From positions 130,138,001-130,202,000 of the forward strand of contig OX597818.1 of NCBI GenBank assembly GCA_951406725.2: DNA of 64,000 nucleotides, read 5' to 3'. The notes under the pieces are model-generated. The model saw only the letters and a program-made list of their open reading frames with translations, was not told the origin of the DNA and searched no databases. This document shows, one piece after another, positions 9,073 to 64,000 of this stretch. Origin of the DNA: Octopus vulgaris. Its lineage: Eukaryota. Both the position numbers and the translations under genes were made by a program. Numbering within the stretch: the stretch's first letter is position 1; each line of letters opens with the position of its first letter.

Positions 9073-9145
9073 TCTCCCCATATGTGTGTGTGTGTGTAAG
9101 TGTGTGTGTAGGGGTGTAACCAACTATATGAGTGTATATACCCAT

Positions 9146-9360
9146 TACTCTCTTTTATACTCTTTTACTTGTTTCAGTCATTTGACTGCGGCCATGCTGG
9201 AGCACAGCCTTTAGTTGAGCAAATTGACCTCGGGACTTATTCTTTGTAAGCCCAGTACTTATTCTATCGGTCTCTTTTGCCGAACCGCTAAGTGACGGGG
9301 ATGTAAACACACCAGCATCGGTTGTCAAGCAATGCTAGGGGGACAAACACACACACGCAT

Positions 9361-9410
<50 letters not shown>

Positions 9411-9578
9411 ACATATATGCGACAGGCTTCTTTCAGTCTCCGTCTACCAAATCCACTCACAAGGCATTGGTCGGCCCGGGGCTATAGCAGAAGACACTTG
9501 CCCAAGATGCCACGCAGTGGGACTGAACCCGGAACCATGTGGTTGGTTAGCAAGCTACTTACCACACAGCCACTCCTG
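9146..9578 (-). mobile_element. Young family A tRNA-SINE, near full length
   Basis: A box tggctgtgtgg, B box ggttcagtccc, internal (TA)n(TG)n, and 3' tail ...gactgaaacaagtaaaagag. Confidence 0.95.
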
Positions 9579-10021
9579 TATATATATATATATACACACA
9601 CACACAGAGTAATAATACATGCAAACTGTGTACGAATTTTTCTGCTGCAGTTGCATAACTGAGCAAGCATTGGCACTGTGAATGAACTAATTAAGCAAAA
9701 TACTACACATCAATTAGATAAGAAGGAATGATGTAAGGTATAGTCATGTATAATGTAGCTAACTTACACTGCAGCTCCAGTGTTTTTTTTGCTTTTTCTC
9801 ATAGCATTTTTAAAATGAGTCTTTACTACCAGGCACTGACTTCTAAGTTTACCTTATATGCTTACTTATCTTATTGCAGTCTATATCTTCTATTAATTTA
9901 TGTTGCGAATACTTGGTCTGGAATGCATAAGCTACATGGTAATTTAGTTTTGTCCAGGTTAGTGTAAACTATACATACATCTATCCTAAAACTAAGGCAC
10001 TACATAAAAAACAATAGTGAT

Positions 10022-16849: not shown

Positions 16850-18559
16850 ATTAAGACTTTTAATGCAATATATGTTCATATTTATTATTGTGTTAGTGTA
16901 TATACAAAACTATGAATTACGTTTATCATGTTATGTAATGATATGCAACTCTTTGACACAAACCAGGTTAGTTTTATTACCAAGACCATAAGTTCTCAAG
17001 GCATCTGAATTCTGTTTCCAGCTTCTGTAGTGTGATGCCACAAAATCCAGCACTACATCTGGCAACAATTTGGCAGCAGGGCAGGCAGAACAAAAGGTCA
17101 TTTCCTAAATCACTATGTAATGCTTGTACAAAGGTAAATATTTAGTGACTATTATTTCACATACAGGTGAAATAAATAGAATCCTTGCATCATAATCTGC
17201 TTGACTATTCATAATGATATGTAAATGAGCTTCATTAAATTCAAGGAAAAGGGAGGTAAATGATACATTAATGCCTTTTCTAGATACATTAATGATAGAG
17301 CTAAGCTATCCCTTTACTAAATCACAAGTGTGCATAGATCTATTCCTTATCTCTTATTTCCATAAAATTAAGCAGGGAGAGCAAATCTCTCCTGAGATAG
17401 GATGCTGGTCTATCACAAATACATATACAAGAAACAACTAGACTTCCGTATCAAAACTTAGTCACAGACATGGAACACTTCTACTGCACTACCTCTACAA
17501 CAGCACACCAGACATAAACTTGTAACTTTTAAAACAGAAGGTTGATGATTTGCTCCCTTGTTGCAGAAATACACATATACTTCATACAATTCTAAGAAGA
17601 TAAGAGCCTATAGTAAAGACAGAGCAGTGTTATGATAGACAGAATTTATCTTCACTTATTTATAAGAAAGCCAAGACATGGTTCTGTCTTGATAGTTAAA
17701 TACTATTATACTAATCCTGACACTTTAATAGTAGATTGCAATGAGTGATTAAGACATTGTTGCGATATAATGATTAACATTTGCAAAATTTGACTGCAAA
17801 TTGACTAGAAGTAAAAATGTGACAGCCTACTTACTGAACAATGCAAATTTTCAAATGGATGTAATGACTAGGAGTAAATTTTAATTTGATATAACATTTA
17901 AGAATAAATTCCAACTCAACACAGTGATTATGGAAGACATTTGGATAGGATACAATCATTATGAGTTTGTTTTGACAACATGGCAAATAAATAGGAATTT
18001 TAGTCACCACACAGCACAGATTTAAATGTTGATTGAAAAATACCGACATATTAGCAATCTTGACATAATCATTGTCATCGTTATGATTATGACCAATTTA
18101 ATGTGTTTCCACCTACTGAAACAATTTGGAGGAAAATATGATTTGAAACAATACCAGTTTTTAAATTCAGCCGGTGGTTCATGTCATCCCATAATAATGC
18201 TTAATACTTGATAATACCATGTCGACTAAATTACTCTCACAACATTCTTGTAAATATGGTCAATATCATCAGACATTTTTTACTCTAATTGCTTTTTCTA
18301 GCTGGATTTATTTATTTATTTTACAAAACTGTCCTTCACTTTTCCTCATTCTAAGTTATTTTTCCATAATTGATTTAAGGTCTGAACTATTTTGTTCCAA
18401 AGTCATTTCTGCACAACATTTTCTTTCAATAGAAAAGAACTATTTTCTCGTGGTTTCTTGTTTGGACTTGTTTGTTTTTTTTTGATAAATTATTCTTACA
18501 TAATTCTTTGTTGAAGTATTTCTATAACAAGTTTTGCTCCGTATCATTTATATTTTACA

Positions 18560-19168: not shown

Positions 19169-19934
19169 CAAAAGTTTTTCTATTTTTCATCATCATCTAC
19201 TCATTCTTTTGCTTAATCCTCCCTATAATCTCATTAATTTCAAGACATCTTTGCCATCATCTGACTGAAAATGTAGGTAAAGTTATTAAAAGGATGACTG
19301 ATTACTTATTAGAAACAAGAAAGGGACACCTTTTAATGGGTGAAATCTGTTCCCCTTGTTTGTTTTATTTTTCATCTGAAGGGCATTAAAGTGAGATTAA
19401 GGCATGGAAAATATACCAGATTCATTATTTGTCTGTTGTTTTTTTCATGTGTGAAATGTTAGTAATAAAACAGTCAACTTTTTTTTTCAGCAGTGCACAT
19501 TATCAGTAATCAAAGATACACCATCTAGAGGTGACTGTTTCAGCCAGAAGAATCAAAATTTGCTCGGGGTTAAAATGATTGAAGTTCAGAATCAATTACC
19601 TTTAACTTAAATTTCAAAGCTATTGTCTTTTACATCACTAGTTAAACTATCAATAGCACAAGGAAGAGGGGGAGTCATTTTATTCTAGTTAAATTTAAAT
19701 CAATCTCTGATACAGTGAATGAAAGAATGGAGACAACACAAAATACAAAGAAATTTTGTTTTACTTGCTTAGAGCAATAAAATCTTTCAAGTTTCAGTGT
19801 CACAATAAACAACACCCAATACACTCTGTAAAATGGTTTGAGAGAGGCAAGAGATCCAGCTATGGAAACCATGTTAAAAATGGAACATACAAGCAAGATA
19901 TGATTTCAAACCATTCTGGAAGACAGTAACTCTA

Positions 19935-20104
19935 GGCCAAGGAGTGGCTGTGTGGTAAGTAGCTTGCTAACCAACCACATGGTTCTGGGTTCAGTCCCAC
20001 TGCGTGGCATCTTGGGCAAGTGTCTTCTGCTATAGCCCCGGGCCGACCAATGCCTTGTGAGTGGATTTGGTAGATGGAAACTGAAAGAAGCCTGTCGTAT
20101 ATGT

Positions 20105-20164
<60 letters not shown>

Positions 20165-20359
20165 TTGTCCCCCCTAGCATTGCTTGACAACCGATGCTGG
20201 TGTGTTTACGTCCCCGTCACTTAGCAGTTCGGCAAAAGAGACCGATAGAATAAGTACTGGGCTTACAAAGAATAAGTCCCGGGGTCGATTTGCTCGACTA
20301 AAGGCGGTGCTCCAGCATGGCCGCAGTCAAATGACTGAAACAAATAAAAGAGTAAAGGG
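19935..20359 (+). mobile_element. Young family A SINE, full length
   Basis: Complete head, body and tail. TSD agtaactct at 19925-19933 and 20360-20368. Confidence 0.95.
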
Positions 20360-21149
20360 AGTAACTCTGAATAAGAACTTTTTAAAATCATGATAACCCA
20401 TCTAATTGATGTCAATGGAGAAATATATATATGATGAAGTTCATGTTGAACTGGGTGTAGGACGTGGACATATAGTTAAAAAGTTTGCTTCACAATCATG
20501 TGAGTCTGGGTTTTGTTCTTTGGTACTGTCACTTGAGAAAATGTCTTCTACCAGTCTCAGATAAACCCAATTTTCTGTAAGTCAAATATGTTGGATGAAA
20601 ACTGTGCAAAAACTTGTCAGATGGCCTATTTTTTAAGTATAGATTTAATCTATTACCTGTTTTAACACCACCACCTCACCTTTGAATGCCTCTAGTGAAG
20701 TTCATTCTATTGCAAGCATTCAGACTAGGTACCTGATCTAAGGATATCAAAATTTCTTTCCATTTCCCCCACCAGTCTAAGAGGTCTTGCAAAATAATCC
20801 ATGTATGTTGTACTTGTTCCCAAGTGATAAAAATATAATAATATGTATTTTCTACTCAATAAAGATACTTGTTTGCAAAATATTTAAAAAAATCAACCTA
20901 TATAGAATAGCAATAGTAATGCTAAATTTCCAAAGCCAAAATTTAGAATTAACACATACACAAAACATCTGACTGAGAATAAATGGTAAATTAGGAAGTT
21001 TATACTTTTGTGAAAGATATTAAACTGATACAAAGTTTATCAGATCAAAAGGGTTAAACAACTGAGTCAAGTGTTCAAGTGTAAACTTAATAAAAATATT
21101 GATGTTTCATTATATTTGCTATATGGATAATAATAATGATAATAATAAT

Positions 21150-30849: not shown

Positions 30850-31079
30850 TACTCTTTTACTCTTTTATTTGTTTCAGTCATGTGACTGTGGCCATGCTGG
30901 AGCACTGCCTTTAGTCGAGCAAATTGACCCCAGGACTTATTCTTTGTAAGCCTAGTACTTATTCTATTGGCCTCTTTTGCTGAACCGCTAATTTACAGGG
31001 ATATAAACACACCAGCATCGGTTGTCAAGCGATGTTTGGGGAACAAACAGACACACAAACACACATACATACATATATG

Positions 31080-31139
<60 letters not shown>

Positions 31140-31318
31140 CATACATACATATATACGATGGGCTTCTTTCAGTTTCTGTCTACCAAATCCACTCACAAGG
31201 CTTTGGTCAGCCTGAGGCTATAGTAGAAGACACTTGCCCAAGGTGCCACACAGTGGGCCTGAACCCAGAACCATGTGGTTCATAAGCAAGCTACTTACCA
31301 CACAGCCACTCCTACACC
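30850..31318 (-). mobile_element. Family A SINE, full length
   Basis: Complete head, body and tail. Confidence 0.95.
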
Positions 31319-31929
31319 TATTATGGAGAAATATTTCCTTGCTTGGGAAACAAGTGAGAGATACTTACAGGAAGAGCATCCAACTGTAGTAAATCTGTTT
31401 CAATAAACTGTCTGACCCATGCAAGCATGGAAAAATGGTCATTAGTACCATGATGATGATGATGATTATGAATTGCACTTTTCGGTTTTTGATGCATGTT
31501 CTAGTTAAGCATTAAGAAATAATTACTTGTCTTACGCAACACTCAATTTTAGAGCAGATGAAAGCCTTTGGTATCAGGTGTTGCCCATCCCATGTGTACC
31601 CTCCTAGTTTATAATCTGTTTTGTTGAAAACTAAAAACATTAACCATATGACTTCTAGAATTCACCATGGAGTAGAATGGAATAAGAGTGGAGTGGGGCG
31701 TGTCTTGTTAGTAAACTGAAAAAAACAAATTTCTTTCATTTTTCAGTTGTTCAAGTTGATCCTTTGGGAAAAAGTAAGCTTAAAGATTTAATTAACGAAA
31801 TAATTATTATTACTATTATATTTTTTTTTTAGTTCTTTAATTTTATTAATATTTGTTTCATTATTTTAACTGGCAACGTTGTTGCTGTTTTTTATTGTTA
31901 TTTTACATCATCAACATCAGTAATATAAT

Positions 31930-32616: not shown

Positions 32617-33003
32617 CCTTTTCGATACCAACCCGGCTAAAACCGCCTCTGGCTCTGTAGTACAAAAGTCTTGTTTTCATATATTCTGAATGAAAATCTC
32701 TCACCAAACCTTAAGTCACAATTTATGTTCCTAACAAAAGCTTAATGATAACTAAGTTATCTTACTAAATTCTTTGTTATACTCTTACTCTTTTCTCTTT
32801 TACTTGTTTCAGTCATTTGACTGCAGCCATGCTGGAGCACTGCCTTTAATCGAGCAACTCGACCCCAGGACTTATTCTTTGTAAGCCCAGTACTTATTCT
32901 ATTGGTCTCTTTTGCCAAACCGCTAAGTGACGGGGACATAAACACACCAGCATAGGTTGTCAAGCAATGCTAGGGGACAAACACAGACGCACATACATAC
33001 ACG

Positions 33004-33045
<42 letters not shown>

Positions 33046-33275
33046 TACGACAGGCTTCTTTCAGTTTCCATCTACCAAATCCACTCACAAGGCTTTGGTC
33101 GGCCCGAGGCTATAGTAGGAGATACTTGCCCAAGGTACCAGGCAGTAGGACTGAACCTGGAACCATGTGGTTGGTAAACAAGCTACTTACCACACAGCCA
33201 CTCCTGCGCCTGTTATATTTAAAATTAATTGAAAGAAACACAAAGCATTTCAAAATAAATACGGTAACAAAAGGG
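32617..33275. mobile_element. piggyBac-like MITE (same family as 7866-8086) interrupted by a SINE
   Basis: TTAA at 32613-32616 and 33276-33279; colinear with the 7866 copy on both sides of the SINE. Confidence 0.9.
32782..33210 (-). mobile_element. Family A SINE nested in the MITE
   Basis: TSD tgttata at 32775-32781 and 33211-33217; the empty MITE copy has this site only once. Confidence 0.95.
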
Positions 33276-33720: not shown

Positions 33721-33928
33721 CGATTGCTCTTCAATTAGATGTTCACTAGACAGAACTGACCTGAAACAAAACAAACAAAATTTTTGAAATAAATCTCTCT
33801 TAAGGTAAAAACCAATAAAATTGGTTAGGTCACAATGGATTATTAATTTCTGTTTTCTCACGACCTCTGCTGGGAGAACAGTAAATTTAATACTACAATG
33901 ATTTTAATTTTGAAATATAAGCAATATA

Positions 33929-34092
33929 GGCGCAGGAGTGGCTGTGTGGTAAGTAGCTTGCTAACCAACCACATGGTTGCGGGTTCAGTCCCACTGCGTG
34001 GCATCTTGGGCAAGTGTCTTCTGCTATAGCCCTGGGCCGATAATGCCTTGTGAGTGGATTTGGTAGACGGAAACTGAAAGAAGCCTGTCGTA

Positions 34093-34147
<55 letters not shown>

Positions 34148-34356
34148 TTGTGTGTCTGTGTTTGTCCCCCTAGCATTGCTTGACAACCGATGCTGGTGTG
34201 TTTATGTCCCCGTCACTTAGCGGTTCGGCAAAAAGAGACCGATAGAATAAGTACTGGGCTTACAAAGAATAAGTCCCGGGGTCGACTTGCTAGATTTAAG
34301 GCGGTGCTCCAGCATGGCCGCAGTCAAATGACTGAAACAAGTAAAAGAGTAAAAGA
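33929..34356 (+). mobile_element. Young family A SINE, full length
   Basis: Runs from ggcgcaggagtggctgtgtgg to (gtaaaaga)n. Confidence 0.95.
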
Positions 34357-34494
34357 ATAATAAAACCATGCAATAAATAAATAAATAAATAAATAAAAGC
34401 TTATTAAAAACCAAGAAAAAAATAGAAGATAATGCAAACAATAAAATAAACAACACAAGAGAAAATTACAGAGAGAAGTTAAATATAGCAGTGT

Positions 34495-37563: not shown

Positions 37564-37592
37564 ACATGTACATATATATAGACTATATTTAC

Positions 37593-39193
37593 ATAAGAGG
37601 GTGGTCTGAAAATTTCATAGGTGTCACGTTAGAGCTGTAATATCTTGCATACATTAATTTCATCTCTTGTTATCAATATCTGTATCGTTCTTTCTGGTAA
37701 ACTGACATCTCACTGACTCTTCAAAGAAGACATCAAAAGTAACTAGTAGTTACTTCTCTTGAAAATGGACAAAATTTGGCATTGTGGTGTTATCATACTG
37801 ACATGGTTGCTACACTGGGGGAGGATACTCCAGTGTTATCGAGAGTGGCCAGCTGAATTTAGGAGGTGAAGAGAGAATCTTGAAGATGACCCAGTGTCTG
37901 GATGTCCTGCAACTGTCACCACCAAGGAAAACATTGGTTGTCTTCACCACATGCTGATGGATGATAGACAATTTACTGTGAATTAAACAGCCAAATCTGT
38001 TAGCATATCTCGTGAGAAACTTGAGAATATTGTGCACAATCAACTCAGGATTATGAAGATTTCTACTCAGTGGGCGCCATGTCTTCTGCCACCTGATCAA
38101 AAGTGCACCAGGTTGGTCACATCACAGGAAAATTTGACATTATTTGAGGCAGAGCCATCTGGTTTCCTCGAGCATTTTCTAACCTAGGATGAGTGTTGGC
38201 TTCATCACTTCGAACCAGAGACAGAGACAAGCCATACAGTGGAAACACCCTTCCTCACTGCTCCAAAGACACCCAAGGTTGTTTCACCTGCTGTGAAGGT
38301 GATGGCGTCAGTTTTTTTGGGCTGCAAAAGGCAGTTACAAAAGGCTATCAAGAACAAGCACTCAGGAAAACTGACAAAAAGAGACTTGTTTCATCAGGAC
38401 AATATTCCAGCCCACAGCTGTTGGTTTCAATGGCTGTGGTGCATAAATGTGGCTGTGAACTGGATGATTACCCTCCCTGTTTTTCTGATTTCATCCCGTC
38501 TGACTATCATTTGTTCCTCAACTGGAAAAACACTTGGCCGGGAATCAGTATTCCAGTGAGGATGACAATATCTGCTGTTACTCTTTTACTCTTTTACTTG
38601 TTTCAGTTATTTGACTGTGGCCATGCTGGAGCACCGCCTTTAATCGAGCAACTCGACCCCGGGACTTATTCTTTTGTAAGCCCAGTACTTATTTTATCGG
38701 TCTCTTTTGCCGAACCGCTAAGTAACGGGGACACAAACACACCAGCATCGGTTGTCAAGCAATGCTAGGGGGACAAACACAGACACACAAACACACACAC
38801 GCATATATATATACATACATATATATGATGGGCTTCTTTCAGTTTCCGTCTACCAAATCCACTCACAAGGTTTTGGTCGGCCCGAGGCTATAGTAGAAGA
38901 CACTTGCCCAAGGTGCCACGCTATAGTAGAAGACACTTGCCAAGGTGCCCAAGGTGCCACGTAGAAGACACTTGCCCAAGCTACTTATCACACAGCCACT
39001 CCTGCGCCTATATGTTGATGACTTTTTTCACCAACAACATGAAACTTTCTTCTTCAATGGGATACAAACACTACAATACCCATGGAAGAAGTGTACAAGC
39101 CACAAGAGGGACTATGCTGAAAAATAAGCTTCATTTAGTCACATTCTGTGAGAGCATCTTGGTCAGCCCATGAACTCTTCAGCTGACCCTCAT
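37593..39193 (+). mobile_element. mariner transposon, near full length but pseudogenised, with a nested SINE
   Basis: Degenerate TIRs gagggtggtctgaaaatttcatagg / cccatgaactcttcagctgaccctc. Transposase remnants LEDDPVSGCP, QWAPCLL (WVPHEL-like), T*DECWLHHFEPE, FHQDNIPAH, PPCFSDFIPSDYHLF (YSPDLAPSD-like) and WKKCTSHKRDYAEK*. Confidence 0.9.
38579..39008 (-). mobile_element. Family A SINE inside the mariner ORF, with a rearranged head
   Basis: Tail and body are standard; the B-box segment is replaced by repeats at 38887-38980. Confidence 0.9.
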
Positions 39194-40499: not shown

Positions 40500-40955
40500 T
40501 GGTAGAACTAAATATGTTTCTACAAAAGCAGAAATGCACTGAAAGGCTAATAAATCATGCTATAACCAAAGCAAAACTAATTCCAGTCTCTGCTATCAAT
40601 CATCAAATCTCCAAGAAATAATCTTAAAAATTCACAAATCATCAGCAACCAAAGACAACAACAAAATCTCAAAAGACTAACAAATGCAAGATTCACATTA
40701 GAGAAAGAAGTAATAGAGGTAACAACTTGTGGTGACCCTCATTGTAGGACATGTGAAATAATTAAAGAAAGAACAATGTAAAGATTCAAGAATGAGAAGG
40801 AATTGAAACCAAATGGAAACCTGAATTGCAAAATAAAAAATTCTCATCTACTGCCTCATACCCCTGCAGTGCAATGAAAATTACATTGGGGAAACAGGAA
40901 CTAAACTAACCAGCCATGTAGATGTGAATAAACAGCAAACTAAAGATTTATCTCT
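40500..40955 (+). mobile_element. Penelope-like element fragment 1 (linker plus GIY-YIG endonuclease start)
   Basis: Translates ELNMFLQKQ...LINHAITKAK ... RQQQNLKRL ... CGDPHCRTCEII ... NLNCK...LIYCLIPLQCNENYIGETG. Confidence 0.8.
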
Positions 40956-40964
40956 TAGAAATGG

Positions 40965-41400
40965 TCCAAATGCAAAGCTTTACACAACAACCATGAAACT
41001 AATGGTTAACAAATGTGGATGAAAAACTGTGGAACATGCCCCAACCTACTAGAAAGCTCAGAATTCCAATTCAAAGAAGGTGAGAGGTTCACAATTAAGA
41101 CAAACTTCACTTGTGCATCTTAGAATTTAATTTTTGTTATAACTTGTTGAGGTTATGGACATAACTATATAGGACAGACAAGTATGACCCTTAGACAGAT
41201 AACAATACTACATAAGGAACATATCTGTTTCCCAAAGTATTGACAGATATCTTTGAGTTAACACTTAGAGAGTTTTGTGTAAGGAATTTCCAATCAAGTT
41301 TCACAGTTTTCCCCATCTACCAGTGCAAAGAAACAATTTCTGTATAAGAACGTTTAAATAAAGAAAATTTATTTATGCTTAAATATGAATGCATAACCAA
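40965..41400 (+). mobile_element. Penelope-like element fragment 2 (different family, GIY-YIG)
   Basis: Translates KCG..NCGTCPNLLE...FTIKTNFTCAS*NLIFVITC*GYGHNYIGQTSMTLRQ...HKEHI...FTVFPIYQ...RLNKENLF. Confidence 0.8.
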
Positions 41401-45343: not shown

Positions 45344-45431
45344 ACATGTACTTTGTAATCAGAGACACAAATGGAGAAATACATTGATCAGATACAGACA
45401 TATAGATTAAATTTTAAATATGTAAATATAG

Positions 45432-45889
45432 AATGGTTGTATACTGTCAATCTAACAAGAACGTGACAGTAGGGGGTACACCACCGCTGTATAGCCCTAG
45501 GAAGCATCAAACGCCTCCTGATAGCTTTGACACATTTTTTCCCTGTGTCCTTATATACATATACGAAGGGGAGACAAACGCCCCCGGCCGCCGGAACTGC
45601 ATCTAGGGACACCGTGTTTCAGAATCGTTGTCCTTCATCGGCCTAGAGTAGCAGACACCGGTCAGCTGGTTCCGGCGGCCGGGGTGTTTGTCGCCCCTTC
45701 GTATATGTATATAAGGACACAGGGAAAAAATGTGTCAAAGCTATCAGGAGGCGTTCGATGCTGCCTAGGGCTATACAGCGGTGGCGTACCCCCTACTGTC
45801 ACATTCTTGTTAGATTGACAGTATACAACCATTCTATCGCCCCACCACCGTACATGTCTCTACGAGAGATTTAGAAATTCAATATTTCT
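45432..45889. mobile_element. Foldback non-autonomous element (probably Penelope-derived) with ~170-bp arms
   Basis: Arms 45428-45597 and 45669-45837 differ by about 6 substitutions and 1 indel. A 52-bp extension lies on one side only. TSD tatgtaaatatag at 45419-45431 and 45890-45902. Confidence 0.9.
45597..45654 (-). ncRNA. Type I hammerhead ribozyme (variant core CCGAUGA)
   Basis: Minus strand reads CUGC UAC UCUAGG CCGAUGA AGGA CAACGA UUCU GAAA CA CGG UG UC | CCUAGA U GCAG. All three stems pair and the cleavage triplet is GUC. Confidence 0.75.
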
Positions 45890-46814
45890 TATGTAAATAT
45901 AGTTACTGATTAAGTTCTTAGGTTAGGGAGAGTGTGTTGTCAGCAATTGAAAAACTCTGACTTTAAACATGGGTCAGGTATGACTGTGTGGTTACAAAGC
46001 TCACTCGATAACCACGTTGTTCTGGATTTGATCCTGATGCATGATGCCTTAAGTGTCTTCTACAACAGCCTAAAGCAATGCCACACAAGTAAAATTTAGT
46101 GGATGGGAAGTGTATGGATTTTATAGCAGTTCTTTAAATAAACATATTGTTGAAATGATTCGAAAGAAGACAATAAAAAATGTTCTGGTGATAATTGAGT
46201 TAATTTAAGTAGCTTGTAAACCCTTTAACTTCTAGAAAAGCTGAATTGGTAAGAGTGACAGAGATGTCTTGTGAAACTTAGATACAGACCATTACATTCT
46301 GTGAAGGTGTGGTTAAGGTGATGGTTCATCATTATTAGGTCTTGAGTTCCATTCTTGGATCAGACAGTATTTTGTGTCCTTGAGCAAGAAACCTCTTTTC
46401 CCATTGCTCTTGTCCATGTAGCCGAAAATGAGTGTGCTGTAGCTGGGTGGGTGGCTAACTATGTGATAAACTAACATTCTGTTTAGGAAGAGGGAGTCTT
46501 TTACTCTCAGTCACCTAAACATGTCAGAAATCTGCATAATCTTTAGCCTCAAGATTAATTTGGTTTGAGGTAGAATTTATTTCTTTTTTATGTTAGATGG
46601 TATACCGTAAGTTCAAATCCTTCTGAGGTTAACTTTGGATACCTTTTTTTTTTTTCTGGGGCTAATAGAAAAGAATGTAACAGGTGCTTTTATCAACTTT
46701 ACCTTCTCTGTAATTTGTAGCTACATGTCCATGCTAAAAATCAACATTATTACAATAATAGAACCTCTAAGGAAATATAGTTGAGTAGGTTTCCAAGTTG
46801 CACTAAATACAGGG

Positions 46815-51033: not shown

Positions 51034-51544
51034 CGCAGCAACAGCCCTTGTGTTTATACTATGGAATGAAATTGGAGATGTACACTATTATATACAAAAC
51101 ATTTTTGATGGATAAACAAATATTTAAAATTAAATGTAAAATATATATCTACATTTATATCTATCTATCTATCTATCTATCTATATATATATATATATTT
51201 AGAGAGAGAGAGAGAGATGGAGAAGCACATATGTATGGACGGGCATGCATACATACATACATACATAACCTCGGATTTTCAGTGCAATCTGTGAGTGGAA
51301 CAGAAAAAATATGCAAGACTTTTCTCAAGTTCCAAATGTGAATTTGTCTGTGTTAACTACATCCCAAAGATGGAGCCTTGTATCCTTGTTGGAAACCAGC
51401 TCCCACCTCAGTGGAAGATTGTTAATAATTAGAAAAATAGAAGAGACACACACACATACATACATACATATACTTACATACATACATACATATACTTACA
51501 TACATACATATACATACATACATACACATACATACATACATACA

Positions 51545-51707
51545 GGCACAGGAGTGGCTGTGTGGTAAGTAGCTTGCTAACCAACCACATGGTTCCAGGT
51601 TCAGTCCCACTGCATGGCATCTTGGGCAAGTGTCTTCTGCTATAGCCTCGGGCCAACCAATGCCTTGTGAGTGGATTTGGTAGACGGAAACTGAAAGAAG
51701 CCTGTCG

Positions 51708-51740
<33 letters not shown>

Positions 51741-51933
51741 GTGTGAATTTGTGTGTCTGTGTTTGTCCCCCTAGCATTGCTTGACAACCGATGCTGGTGT
51801 GTTTATGTCCCCGTCACTTAGCAGTTCGGCAAAAGAGACCGATGAATAAGTACTGGGCTTACAAAGAATTTGCTCGACTAAAGGCGGTGCTCCAGCTTGG
51901 CCGCAGTCAAATGACTGAAACAAGTAAAAGAGT
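51545..51933 (+). mobile_element. Young family A SINE with a ~15-nt internal deletion
   Basis: Complete head and tail; aagtcccggggtcga is missing. Confidence 0.95.
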
Positions 51934-51964
<31 letters not shown>

Positions 51965-52473: not shown

Positions 52474-52691
52474 ATACTAATAAAAAGGGTTCGGCAAAAG
52501 AATTGCCTCGCCGCATACCAAAGTTCAGAAATAACAGCCAAACTCTTAGCCATTTCTTCTACTTTAAAAAGGGTCTTCCAGAGAACTCAAAATACTTGAA
52601 GTATAGAAGAAATGGCTAAGATTTTGGCTGTTATTTCTGAACTTCGGTATGCGGCGAGGCAATTCTTTTGCCGAACCCTTTTTATTAGTAT
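52474..52691. repeat. Foldback inverted repeat with 88-bp arms and a 42-nt spacer
   Basis: 52474-52561 is the reverse complement of 52604-52691 with 2 mismatches. Confidence 0.95.
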
Positions 52692-57355: not shown

Positions 57356-57434
57356 TGTAATTGGTTCAGTTTTAACACAGGATCTTAGAAAATGATTTGA
57401 TCTGAGATCCTGTGTTGAAACTGAAATAATTACA
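57356..57434 (+). other. 79-nt hairpin (34-position stem, 11-nt loop), pre-miRNA-like
   Basis: On the + strand: 30 Watson-Crick pairs, 3 G-U pairs and 1 mismatch. Confidence 0.5.
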
Positions 57435-57977
57435 TCATGAAAAAGTCATGCTATGTTTATTTAAAATCACACAATTGATGCTAATTAATAGTTTTTACAG
57501 TTACTTTCATTCATGGCTTCATAGTATCTTCTACAATAAACTGTTTTGTTGTACTTCCGCAACTAGTTCTTTAACATAGTTCCACCGCATGACAGAAGCG
57601 TAGAGAAAATTTTGAATACATTGAAATATATGATCCACCCATTTAGAAGCCCATTATCTATAGAGATTACAGATGCACAGCAAAGTATGTTTCAAAAGTC
57701 AGCTATCCTGGTATCACCTATCATCTCCCCAGGAATTGGGGTTTTTTTTTTGTCCTTTGATAAGTTTTACTTCAAATCCTATAGGGGTGACCACCCACCC
57801 TCTTAAGCAAGTAAACTGGTTAGAAGAATAAGTTTACACGCTGACCACCCGACCATAAGACAGATACCAGTGACAGGTATAAGCTGATCATCCCCCATTT
57901 AGTAATATGATAATACAAATAAATACAAATACAAATAATACAAATAAACATGAGCTTCTGTATATTTTTTTTTTAAA

Positions 57978-58380
57978 GGCGCAGGAGTGGCTGTGTGGTA
58001 AGTAGCTTGCTAACCAACCACATGGTTCCGGGTTCAGTCCCACTGCGTGGCATCTTGGGCAAGTGTCTTCTGCTATAGCCCCGGGCCGACCAATGCCTTG
58101 TGAATGGATTTGGTAGACGGAAACTGAAAGAAGCCTGTCGTATATATGTATATGTATATATATGTGTGTGTGTGTTTGTCCCCCTAGCATTGCTTGACAG
58201 CCGATGCTGGTGTGTTTACATCCCCGTCACTTAGCGGTTCGGCAAAAGAGACCGATAGAATAAGTACTGGGCTTACAAAGAATAAGTTCCGGGGTCGATT
58301 TGCTCGACTAAAGGCGGTGCTCCAGCATGGCCGCAGTCAAATGACTGAAACAAGTAAAAGAGTAAAAGAGTAAAAAGAGT
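57978..58380 (+). mobile_element. Young family A SINE, full length
   Basis: Complete head, body and tail. Confidence 0.95.
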
Positions 58381-58823
58381 ATAACACTATGGTAAAAAAA
58401 AACACTAAAAGGGTAAAAAAAAAACCCTAAAAAGGTAAAAAAAGACCCCCACTAAAAATACAAACATAGCAGCAGCTTCAACAATGTCAATATCTACGCA
58501 AGGATGTTCAAAGCCATCTTAAAGGAAGAGCACATTAGGCAGTTCCTTGCTCCCTAAATACAAACCATGGTGTAACATTTGACTGAAAATGAAGTCAATG
58601 AGAAATCTTAGAATCTGAATAAATATCCTAAATATTGCATCATACATAGACATAGGTAGAACTGTCTGGCTAAGAAGTTTGCCTTCCAACTGTGAAGTTC
58701 AAGATTGTTTTACTACTTGGCACCTTCGACAAGCTTATTCTTTTATAGCTTCCAGTCAATCAAAGACTTGTGAGTGGTTTTGGTAGAAGGAAGCTGAAAT
58801 AAATCTGTCATATAGGTAGATGT

Positions 58824-62758: not shown

Positions 62759-63560
62759 AGCAAAGTACATATATTCTTAAGGAGACCAACCCTTTCTCCT
62801 TTTTTTGTACAGTTCATCTTTCAATCTTCCAAAGGTTAATATACCAATATATGAAAAAGTTTCAGTTAATTTAGTAAACCCTTCCTAATTATTCATAATT
62901 TTGAAAATTAACTGAAACACATAGGCAGTGTATTATATTCTTTTTTAGAAACATGGTCACGAAAGGCCTATATTGATTTTATTGCACACATTCATTTTAT
63001 GAAACTACTGACACGCACTCTTCAACATCTCAATTCTATGAAATCCATCAACCTCTACTCATCTTATTTCATTCTTTCTGCTATCAAACAACTGTCTTAG
63101 ATGTCATCAAGAGAAGAGGTTTTGAATGGTTCTTTTATTCATTCCACACATCAACCAATAAGTTACTAATGACATTTTCATCATCATTAATTAAATCATT
63201 TGAATACTACAAATGAATTATGCAATAAAAACATGTTTTGTATATAATTATTTGTATTTTCTTTGCTTCTCTCTCAACTTAATGATGTAATTTTTTCTTT
63301 TAAAAATGGATCTGTTATCAACTTTGAGCTCATATATTACTTTTCATTAGGTGGAGGTCACTTCTGATTAAAACATCATTGGGGGAAAATATAAATTCTA
63401 AATTTATAAAAGGAAATGCTTCAGCTTTCGGTGTTCTTGAATTATTCGTCACATGACTGAAATAAATTACTGTTTTCTGACTTATCCCACTAGAGTTTAG
63501 TTTTCTGCAACAGCTAGAGAAGCTTGTACCAAGATTTGTCATCAATGGTATGTAATCGAT

Positions 63561-63973
63561 TACTCTTTTACTCTTTTACCTGTTTCAGCCATTTGCCTGC
63601 GGCCATGCTGGAGCACTGCCTTTAGTCGAGCAAATCGTCCCCAGGACTTATTCTTTGTAAGCCCAGTACTTATTCTATTGGTGTCTTTTGCTGAACCGCT
63701 AAGTTACAGGGAACATAAAAACACCAGCATCGGTTGTTAAGCGATGTTGGTGGGGGGACAAACACAGACACACAAACACACACACATATATATATATATA
63801 TATACATACATATATACAACGGGCTTCTTTCAGTTTCCGTCTACCAAATTCACTCACAAGGCTTTGGTCGACCTGAGGCTATAGTAGAAGACACTTGCCC
63901 AAGGTGCCATGCAGTGGGACTGAACCCAGAACCATGTGGTTCGTAAGCAAGCTACTTACCACACAGCCACTCC
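63561..63973 (-). mobile_element. Family A SINE, near full length
   Basis: Complete tail and body; the head lacks its first few nucleotides. Confidence 0.95.
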
Positions 63974-64000
63974 TTAACACAACTAGAACTGAAATGTGGT

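Follow-up and report, generated by a model that had tools for sequence, protein, structure and literature searches.

The insert at 45419..45902 of the window (the whole 64,000-nt stretch of octopus DNA that was analysed) consists largely of two long, nearly complementary arms, and raises the question of whether such a rod moves through the genome as a unit or is put together at each insertion from something simpler. The initial annotation had favoured a mobile rod, an almost fully double-stranded ribozyme retroelement. Our analysis leads to a different answer: this is very probably a recent insertion in which two copies of a 3' end, each truncated on its 5' side, stand head to head. The 3' end is that of a high-copy, hammerhead-bearing octopus repeat, and the insert was likely written by a Penelope-type reverse transcriptase (RT)/GIY-YIG endonuclease.

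Alignment placed the arms at 45428-45597 and 45669-45837, differing by six substitutions and one indel and enclosing a loop of 71 nt, much as had been described at the outset. The insert is flanked by two identical copies of the 13-mer TATGTAAATATAG (45419..45431 and 45890..45902). The outermost four bases of the left arm (45428..45431, plus strand) are at the same time the last four bases of the left duplication, so that, strictly taken, the arms measure 166 and 165 nt, the one-sided extension 56 nt (45834-45889) and the insert proper 458 nt (45432-45889), or 471 with one 13-nt duplication. The extension had been correctly placed on the right only, but its length is 56 nt and not 52, since four bases belong to the duplication. 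These four target bases are complementary to the first four of the tail, and it is likely that they served as primer-template microhomology at an inner start site.

The left copy of the family's 3' end (45432..45670, minus strand) is truncated on its 5' side about 25 nt upstream of a hammerhead motif and has no tail, and the right copy (45669..45833, plus strand, placed by alignment) is truncated just downstream of the position of the hammerhead. The tail (45834..45889, plus strand) is family sequence lying past the inner end point; it has a fixed outer end at 45889 and two small predicted hairpins. At the head-to-head junction (45669..45670) the copies share a 2-nt microhomology, both bases of which fit the right arm as well as the family's upstream continuation. 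Read along the sense strand, the left copy is composed of an upstream piece, the hammerhead and the arm up to the inner end point, and the right copy of the arm and the tail; the 5' ends of the two copies meet and their 3' ends face outwards. The minus-strand rod fold has an energy of -347.5 kcal/mol (z -31), a value equalled by none of 100 shuffles. BLASTN found no second copy of the element within the 64-kb window, and a metagenome scan with a 21-nt stretch of it gave 0 matches.

Several other repeats were observed in the window. An unrelated inverted pair at 52474-52691 has 88-nt arms that are 98% complementary and 42 nt apart; on the right it adjoins an (AT)n run, on the left a one-sided extension of about 100 nt leads to a (TA)n run, and our descriptor found no hammerhead in it. 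It may be a further stub of the head-to-head kind, belonging to another family. A short imperfect palindrome at 57356-57434 (84% over 81 columns) adjoins an (AT)n run and the end of a repeat. At 37582-37598, on the edge of another repeat, 17 nt of the minus strand match the end of the tail together with the right duplication, probably by chance in AT-rich DNA. At least nine copies, 81-95% alike, belong to a dispersed repeat that is about 430 nt long, contains an inner microsatellite and is, in our view, SINE-like (9145-9579, 19933-20364, 30850-31321, 32775-33228, 33924-34363, 38578-39013, 51540-51934, 57974-58386 and 63559-63975).

Parts of the stretch were present in 20 of the 24 listed sequencing runs (11 studies, four coded organisms), and contigs of four runs were aligned to it (2895, 2460, 1475 and 68). 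An empty site in a related species had been named as something to look for, and an exact one was found in the contigs of X2 and X1, runs from two other organisms. One contig of each joins 45418 to 45890 at flank depth, skipping 471 bases and carrying the 13-mer once, its 13 letters fitting either side of the joint; the flank letters of these contigs differ from the window at 8 of 425 and 10 of 345 positions. Because the 13-mer is single at the empty site in both runs, the duplication, claimed as a target-site duplication from its two exact copies, is a true one, and the exact empty site in two close relatives indicates that the insertion is young. In a third run, X3, which may be the assembly's own sample, contigs cover both outer junctions without differences, reaching only 19 and 26 bases into the element and thus falling under the 31-base bar. 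No empty-site joint was among the joints listed for X3, of which about 80% was read, and no listed contig crosses the inner junction 45669-45670.

The contigs also describe the family from which the insert derives. Summed contig depth relative to flank depth, a rough ratio and not a copy number, stood at 17557, 9346, 5108 and 1382 for the arm's outer end, the tail, the hammerhead and the upstream part in X3; the corresponding values were 14119, 12403, 3676 and 981 in X2, and 17086, 15666, 1925 and 806 in X1. We take these values to mean that the family has, roughly, thousands of copies and is strongly 5'-truncated. It has two end points, 56 nt apart: at the tail end, 45889, 18 of the X3 contigs listed depart with unlike flanks (agreement 0.5), and the tail-less end adjoins an (AT)n run in 12 of the X2 contigs listed. 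Among the 15 of 43 joints that were listed, one was the empty site, two involved a flanking repeat and 12 lay inside the element at differing points; a second listing added three further internal joints, for at least 15 distinct junctions in all. Depth at the joints was about single-copy in all cases except one, which was at about three-copy depth, and the junction 45560>45698 occurs in three runs. As the shorter side of the internal joints spans only 21-37 letters at 85% likeness, we read them as other copies of the repeat and not as variants of this locus. Behind 45670, 11 contigs of X2 and five of X1 (among the 24 of 510 matches listed) share another continuation, which indicates that the family extends upstream of the hammerhead and that the junction seen here marks just one of its many truncation points. 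The family's arm often carries indels of 1, 2 and 4 bases, and such frequent frameshifts point to a non-coding unit.

The run X11, presumed to be RNA, has 68 contigs on family sequence and leaves the unique flanks uncovered, which bears neither way on expression. Two of its listed contigs (817 and 235 nt) match only the final 75 nt (45815-45889), and three contigs diverge before 45815 into a common other sequence; related families may share a 3' recognition end.

A ribozyme had been claimed for the loop, and a relaxed descriptor made for this analysis placed a type I hammerhead motif at 45602..45647 on the minus strand, with a predicted cut after GUC, between 45608 and 45607. The motif combines a 6-bp stem I (45647-45642 with 45607-45602), the core CCGAUGA (U4C), a 4-bp stem II, GAAA, and a near-palindromic stem III of 3 bp closed by a three-base loop. 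The descriptor matched once in the whole window (minus strand, at 45641), against a chance level of 0.13 matches per simulated window (60 simulations) and one in 20000 loop shuffles. The claim is upheld insofar as the motif exceeds chance, but Rfam reports no hammerhead family (0 matches at the gathering score and, by E-value, two weak and unrelated ones), and the loop, when folded freely, does not take the hammerhead form at its minimum energy: for the loop alone the hammerhead fold reaches -9.6 kcal/mol, 5.8 above the free minimum of -15.4.

Variation in the family contigs was also followed along the motif. Position 45623 is changed in essentially all of the depth of three runs, turning a G-U pair of stem II into G-C, and the second frequent change, at 45627, falls in loop II. 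No core position reached the 3% threshold for listing as variable, so the family as a whole appears to have C at position 4. According to the part of PMC3088659 that treats it, U4C reduces activity in vitro, yet is viable in a viroid; for hammerheads of Penelope-like elements this base might already be on record. In seven contigs of X2 and two of X1 (among the 24 of 510 matches listed), the loss of one base makes helix III a perfect palindrome. The predicted pairing energy of two helix III strands is -9.3 kcal/mol, which agrees with the dimer model of Penelope hammerheads as outlined in PMC4209133 and PMC6765202. The family RNA would be single-armed, and any activity of its hammerhead would depend on dimers formed by way of the near-palindromic helix III. 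Upstream of the hammerhead, at 45654..45663 (minus strand), the sequence carries a near-copy of the helix III strand with a GUC of its own. It pairs with helix III at -6.7 kcal/mol and could possibly act as a decoy, although the decoy capture fold (-8.0 kcal/mol) is not favoured among the predicted folds. A type III-like use of the upstream GUC was rejected, the forced fold reaching -0.5 kcal/mol versus -9.6 for type I. Two of the listed X3 contigs leave the reference at 45655, from which it follows that the near-copy is absent from some subfamilies. The locus marks a high-copy hammerhead family that Rfam misses.

In this copy no convincing ORF was found, as had been stated, and specifically no RT/GIY-YIG ORF linked to the family; the family's upstream part was readable for only 30 letters. 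For the ORF across arm and tail there were eight candidates, none at E 0.01. Relics at 40.5-41.4 kb had been put forward as a possible Penelope helper. The interval 40700-41400 holds two successive decayed pieces, each after a cysteine motif and with many stops, which we take to be GIY-YIG-like from motifs read by eye; Pfam GIY-YIG gave no match on five stop-free relic pieces or on P0001, a gene model of O. sinensis. The stop-free piece 40837-41019 matches an O. sinensis gene model at 90% identity. One relic piece is part of P0001, the other part of which resembles the frame at 38188-38559. Being decayed, full of stops and without any sequence in common with the element, the relics are not its helper. 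Penelope elements are described as abundant in octopus genomes in the relevant section of PMC8967140.

How would such a pair of copies be written? The excerpted results on a purified lizard Penelope protein (PMC11167929) report that it cuts and extends both strands of AT-rich DNA, that two RT start sites bound the tail, and that a dimer is predicted; with this two-strand activity and these two start sites, two nicks and two cDNAs offer the simplest account. The enzyme, for which a Penelope-type RT/GIY-YIG endonuclease is our candidate by analogy, would nick both strands 13 nt apart. The top-strand end would prime at the inner start site through the 4-nt match and copy the arm, then the hammerhead and a further 25 nt or so, and the bottom-strand end would prime at the outer start site and copy the tail and the arm; the two short cDNAs would then be joined via the 2-nt overlap and the gaps filled in. 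A comparable scheme is LINE-1 twin priming, in which two primers are set at staggered nicks, the inversion is joined by microhomology and the duplication is kept. There, two adjacent segments of one RNA are copied, whereas here both copies cover the same stretch, and the product is a hairpin. A difference from the lizard protein is the 4-nt primer match, as the starts described for that enzyme in PMC11167929 are without homology. ADAR marks were also considered among the arm differences and rejected, as both gains of A-to-G type read as U-to-C changes along the sense strand.

Against this account four other readings were weighed. The view that the whole rod with its tail transposes as one unit, a double-stranded ribozyme retroelement that lacks autonomy, draws on a rod that is real and very stable and on the other junction seen in three runs and the one at three-copy depth (within the 15 of 43 joints listed). 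We consider it very improbable: at least 15 differing and nearly all single-copy junctions, together with a family that continues upstream of 45670, imply that the palindrome is not the family unit and that a rod is made at each insertion, so that the expectation of copies sharing one palindrome was not borne out; depth is far from flat across the rod, and in a rod transcript the 3' motif would presumably be buried in duplex. An assembly artefact, or a DNA transposon of the fold-back or MITE kind, is scarcely credible in spite of the long inverted arms and an inner junction absent from the listed contigs, given the one-sided tail, the 13-bp duplication, the 3'-biased depth, the hammerhead motif, arms that differ at seven places and the exact empty site elsewhere. 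On this point the initial rejection of a MITE proved sound, the inverted repeats not being terminal at both ends, the duplication not being short, and the centre not being constant. It is possible, though we doubt it, that the family is the pseudo-LTR (pLTR) end of an autonomous Penelope-like element and not a separate non-autonomous family. The family does extend past the hammerhead on the upstream side, PMC8557442 describes strong 5' truncation as normal for Penelope-like elements, and one frame stays open for 67 codons across arm and tail; but this frame has no homologue among longer proteins (weak evidence), the arm commonly carries 1-, 2- and 4-base indels, and the similarity of the two listed X11 contigs is confined to 45815-45889, which would be expected of several families with a common recognition end.

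The remaining reading keeps the Penelope-type family and derives the second arm from fold-back on a single cDNA, by self-priming or template switch, the tail being trimmed off one end at resolution. Self-priming has been proposed for head-to-head junctions (in the pertinent part of PMC3846280), and the tail ascribed to endonuclease-mediated resolution (likewise in PMC8557442). Both arms carry minority family states at 45523 and 45561, five of the six arm substitutions are rare in the family, and, judged against flank divergence, the six could have arisen by mutation once the element was in place (P 0.10 and 0.35); the arm differences fit one template as well as two. A 6-bp palindrome adjoins the junction in the sequence as well. 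However, fold-back of a top-strand cDNA could not provide the tail, which the left copy lacks, that of a bottom-strand cDNA would place the hammerhead on the opposite strand, and an additional trimming step is required to account for the tail; the purified lizard protein extends both strands in vitro, starting at two sites (PMC11167929). We regard fold-back as unlikely and retain paired priming at two nicks.

In its anatomy the locus resembles insertions of endonuclease-bearing Penelope-like elements with inverted pLTRs and a tail, and it very likely works like a Penelope-type insertion. The sections consulted of Arkhipova et al. (2013, PMC3846280) describe Penelope elements of Adineta with inverted pLTRs, an optional, one-sided 31-bp tail and duplications of 8-10 bp, and those of Craig et al. 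(2021, PMC8557442) an inverted 5'-truncated copy plus tail for the Penelope-like group as a whole. The same traits recur here: 5'-truncated copies in an inverted pLTR-type arrangement with head-to-head orientation and outward 3' ends, an optional one-sided tail, a hammerhead in the terminal repeat, and a long target-site duplication at an AT-rich site, confirmed by the empty site in X1 and X2. Unlike those insertions, the present one has no ORF between its ends and only one of its copies reaches the hammerhead; its tail is 56 nt long versus 30-40, and its duplication 13 bp versus 8-10.

Likeness extends to the Penelope-type hammerheads reported by Cervera and de la Pena (2014, PMC4209133), which, in the portion available, are of type I with a short near-palindromic helix III suited to dimers, are found mostly in truncated dispersed copies, and include opposite-strand pairs 100-700 bp apart. 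By comparison with that portion, the octopus motif differs in the C at position 4 throughout the family contigs examined, in the near-copy of helix III upstream, and in a 4-bp stem II without an extra unpaired base. Retrozymes have been proposed to be non-autonomous pLTR derivatives (bioRxiv 10.64898/2026.07.22.740005; PMC7229834, both in excerpt). Animal non-LTR retrozymes as treated there (Cervera and de la Pena 2020, PMC7229834; bioRxiv 10.64898/2026.07.22.740005) are likewise small, apparently non-coding and endowed with a type I hammerhead; they also have long duplications, supposedly use Penelope-like enzymes and occur in molluscs (mussel). They are defined, in these excerpts, by head-to-tail tandem monomers and circular RNAs, whereas this copy is inverted and was examined in contigs. 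No head-to-tail tandem monomers occur in this copy, and contigs leave the tail end with unlike flanks. The view of a mobile, multi-copy, apparently non-coding element of retro type stands, then: its anatomy is Penelope-like, its duplication is long, and its site is empty in X1 and X2; the family is likely a non-autonomous, pLTR-derived and retrozyme-like one, and this particular copy is probably a dead end.

Among the papers listed by literature searches, none describes this octopus family. The architecture itself is already in print, and the locus is probably a further case of a Penelope-type inverted insertion and not a new rod-shaped mobile RNA; with its architecture known, the locus is ordinary. 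According to PMC8557442, the way in which Penelope-like elements form their inverted ends and tails is still undefined. The family offers very many insertions that are young and short and whose empty sites in close relatives are exact; in these, differences between arms, microhomologies at junctions and primer matches can be tallied. The family is also a possible source of long hairpin RNA in octopus. Cephalopods have heavy and unusually active A-to-I RNA editing. In a broader picture, which we hold to be rather improbable as a whole, octopuses would carry a young, SINE-like Penelope parasite in thousands of copies, with a family-wide U4C hammerhead and a built-in helix III decoy, whose paired-priming insertion would seed near-perfect hairpins of 100-170 bp throughout the genome and feed A-to-I editing wherever these are transcribed. 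If this were true, species-specific copies of the family would tell two templates from fold-back in Penelope inversions and so settle the choice between them.
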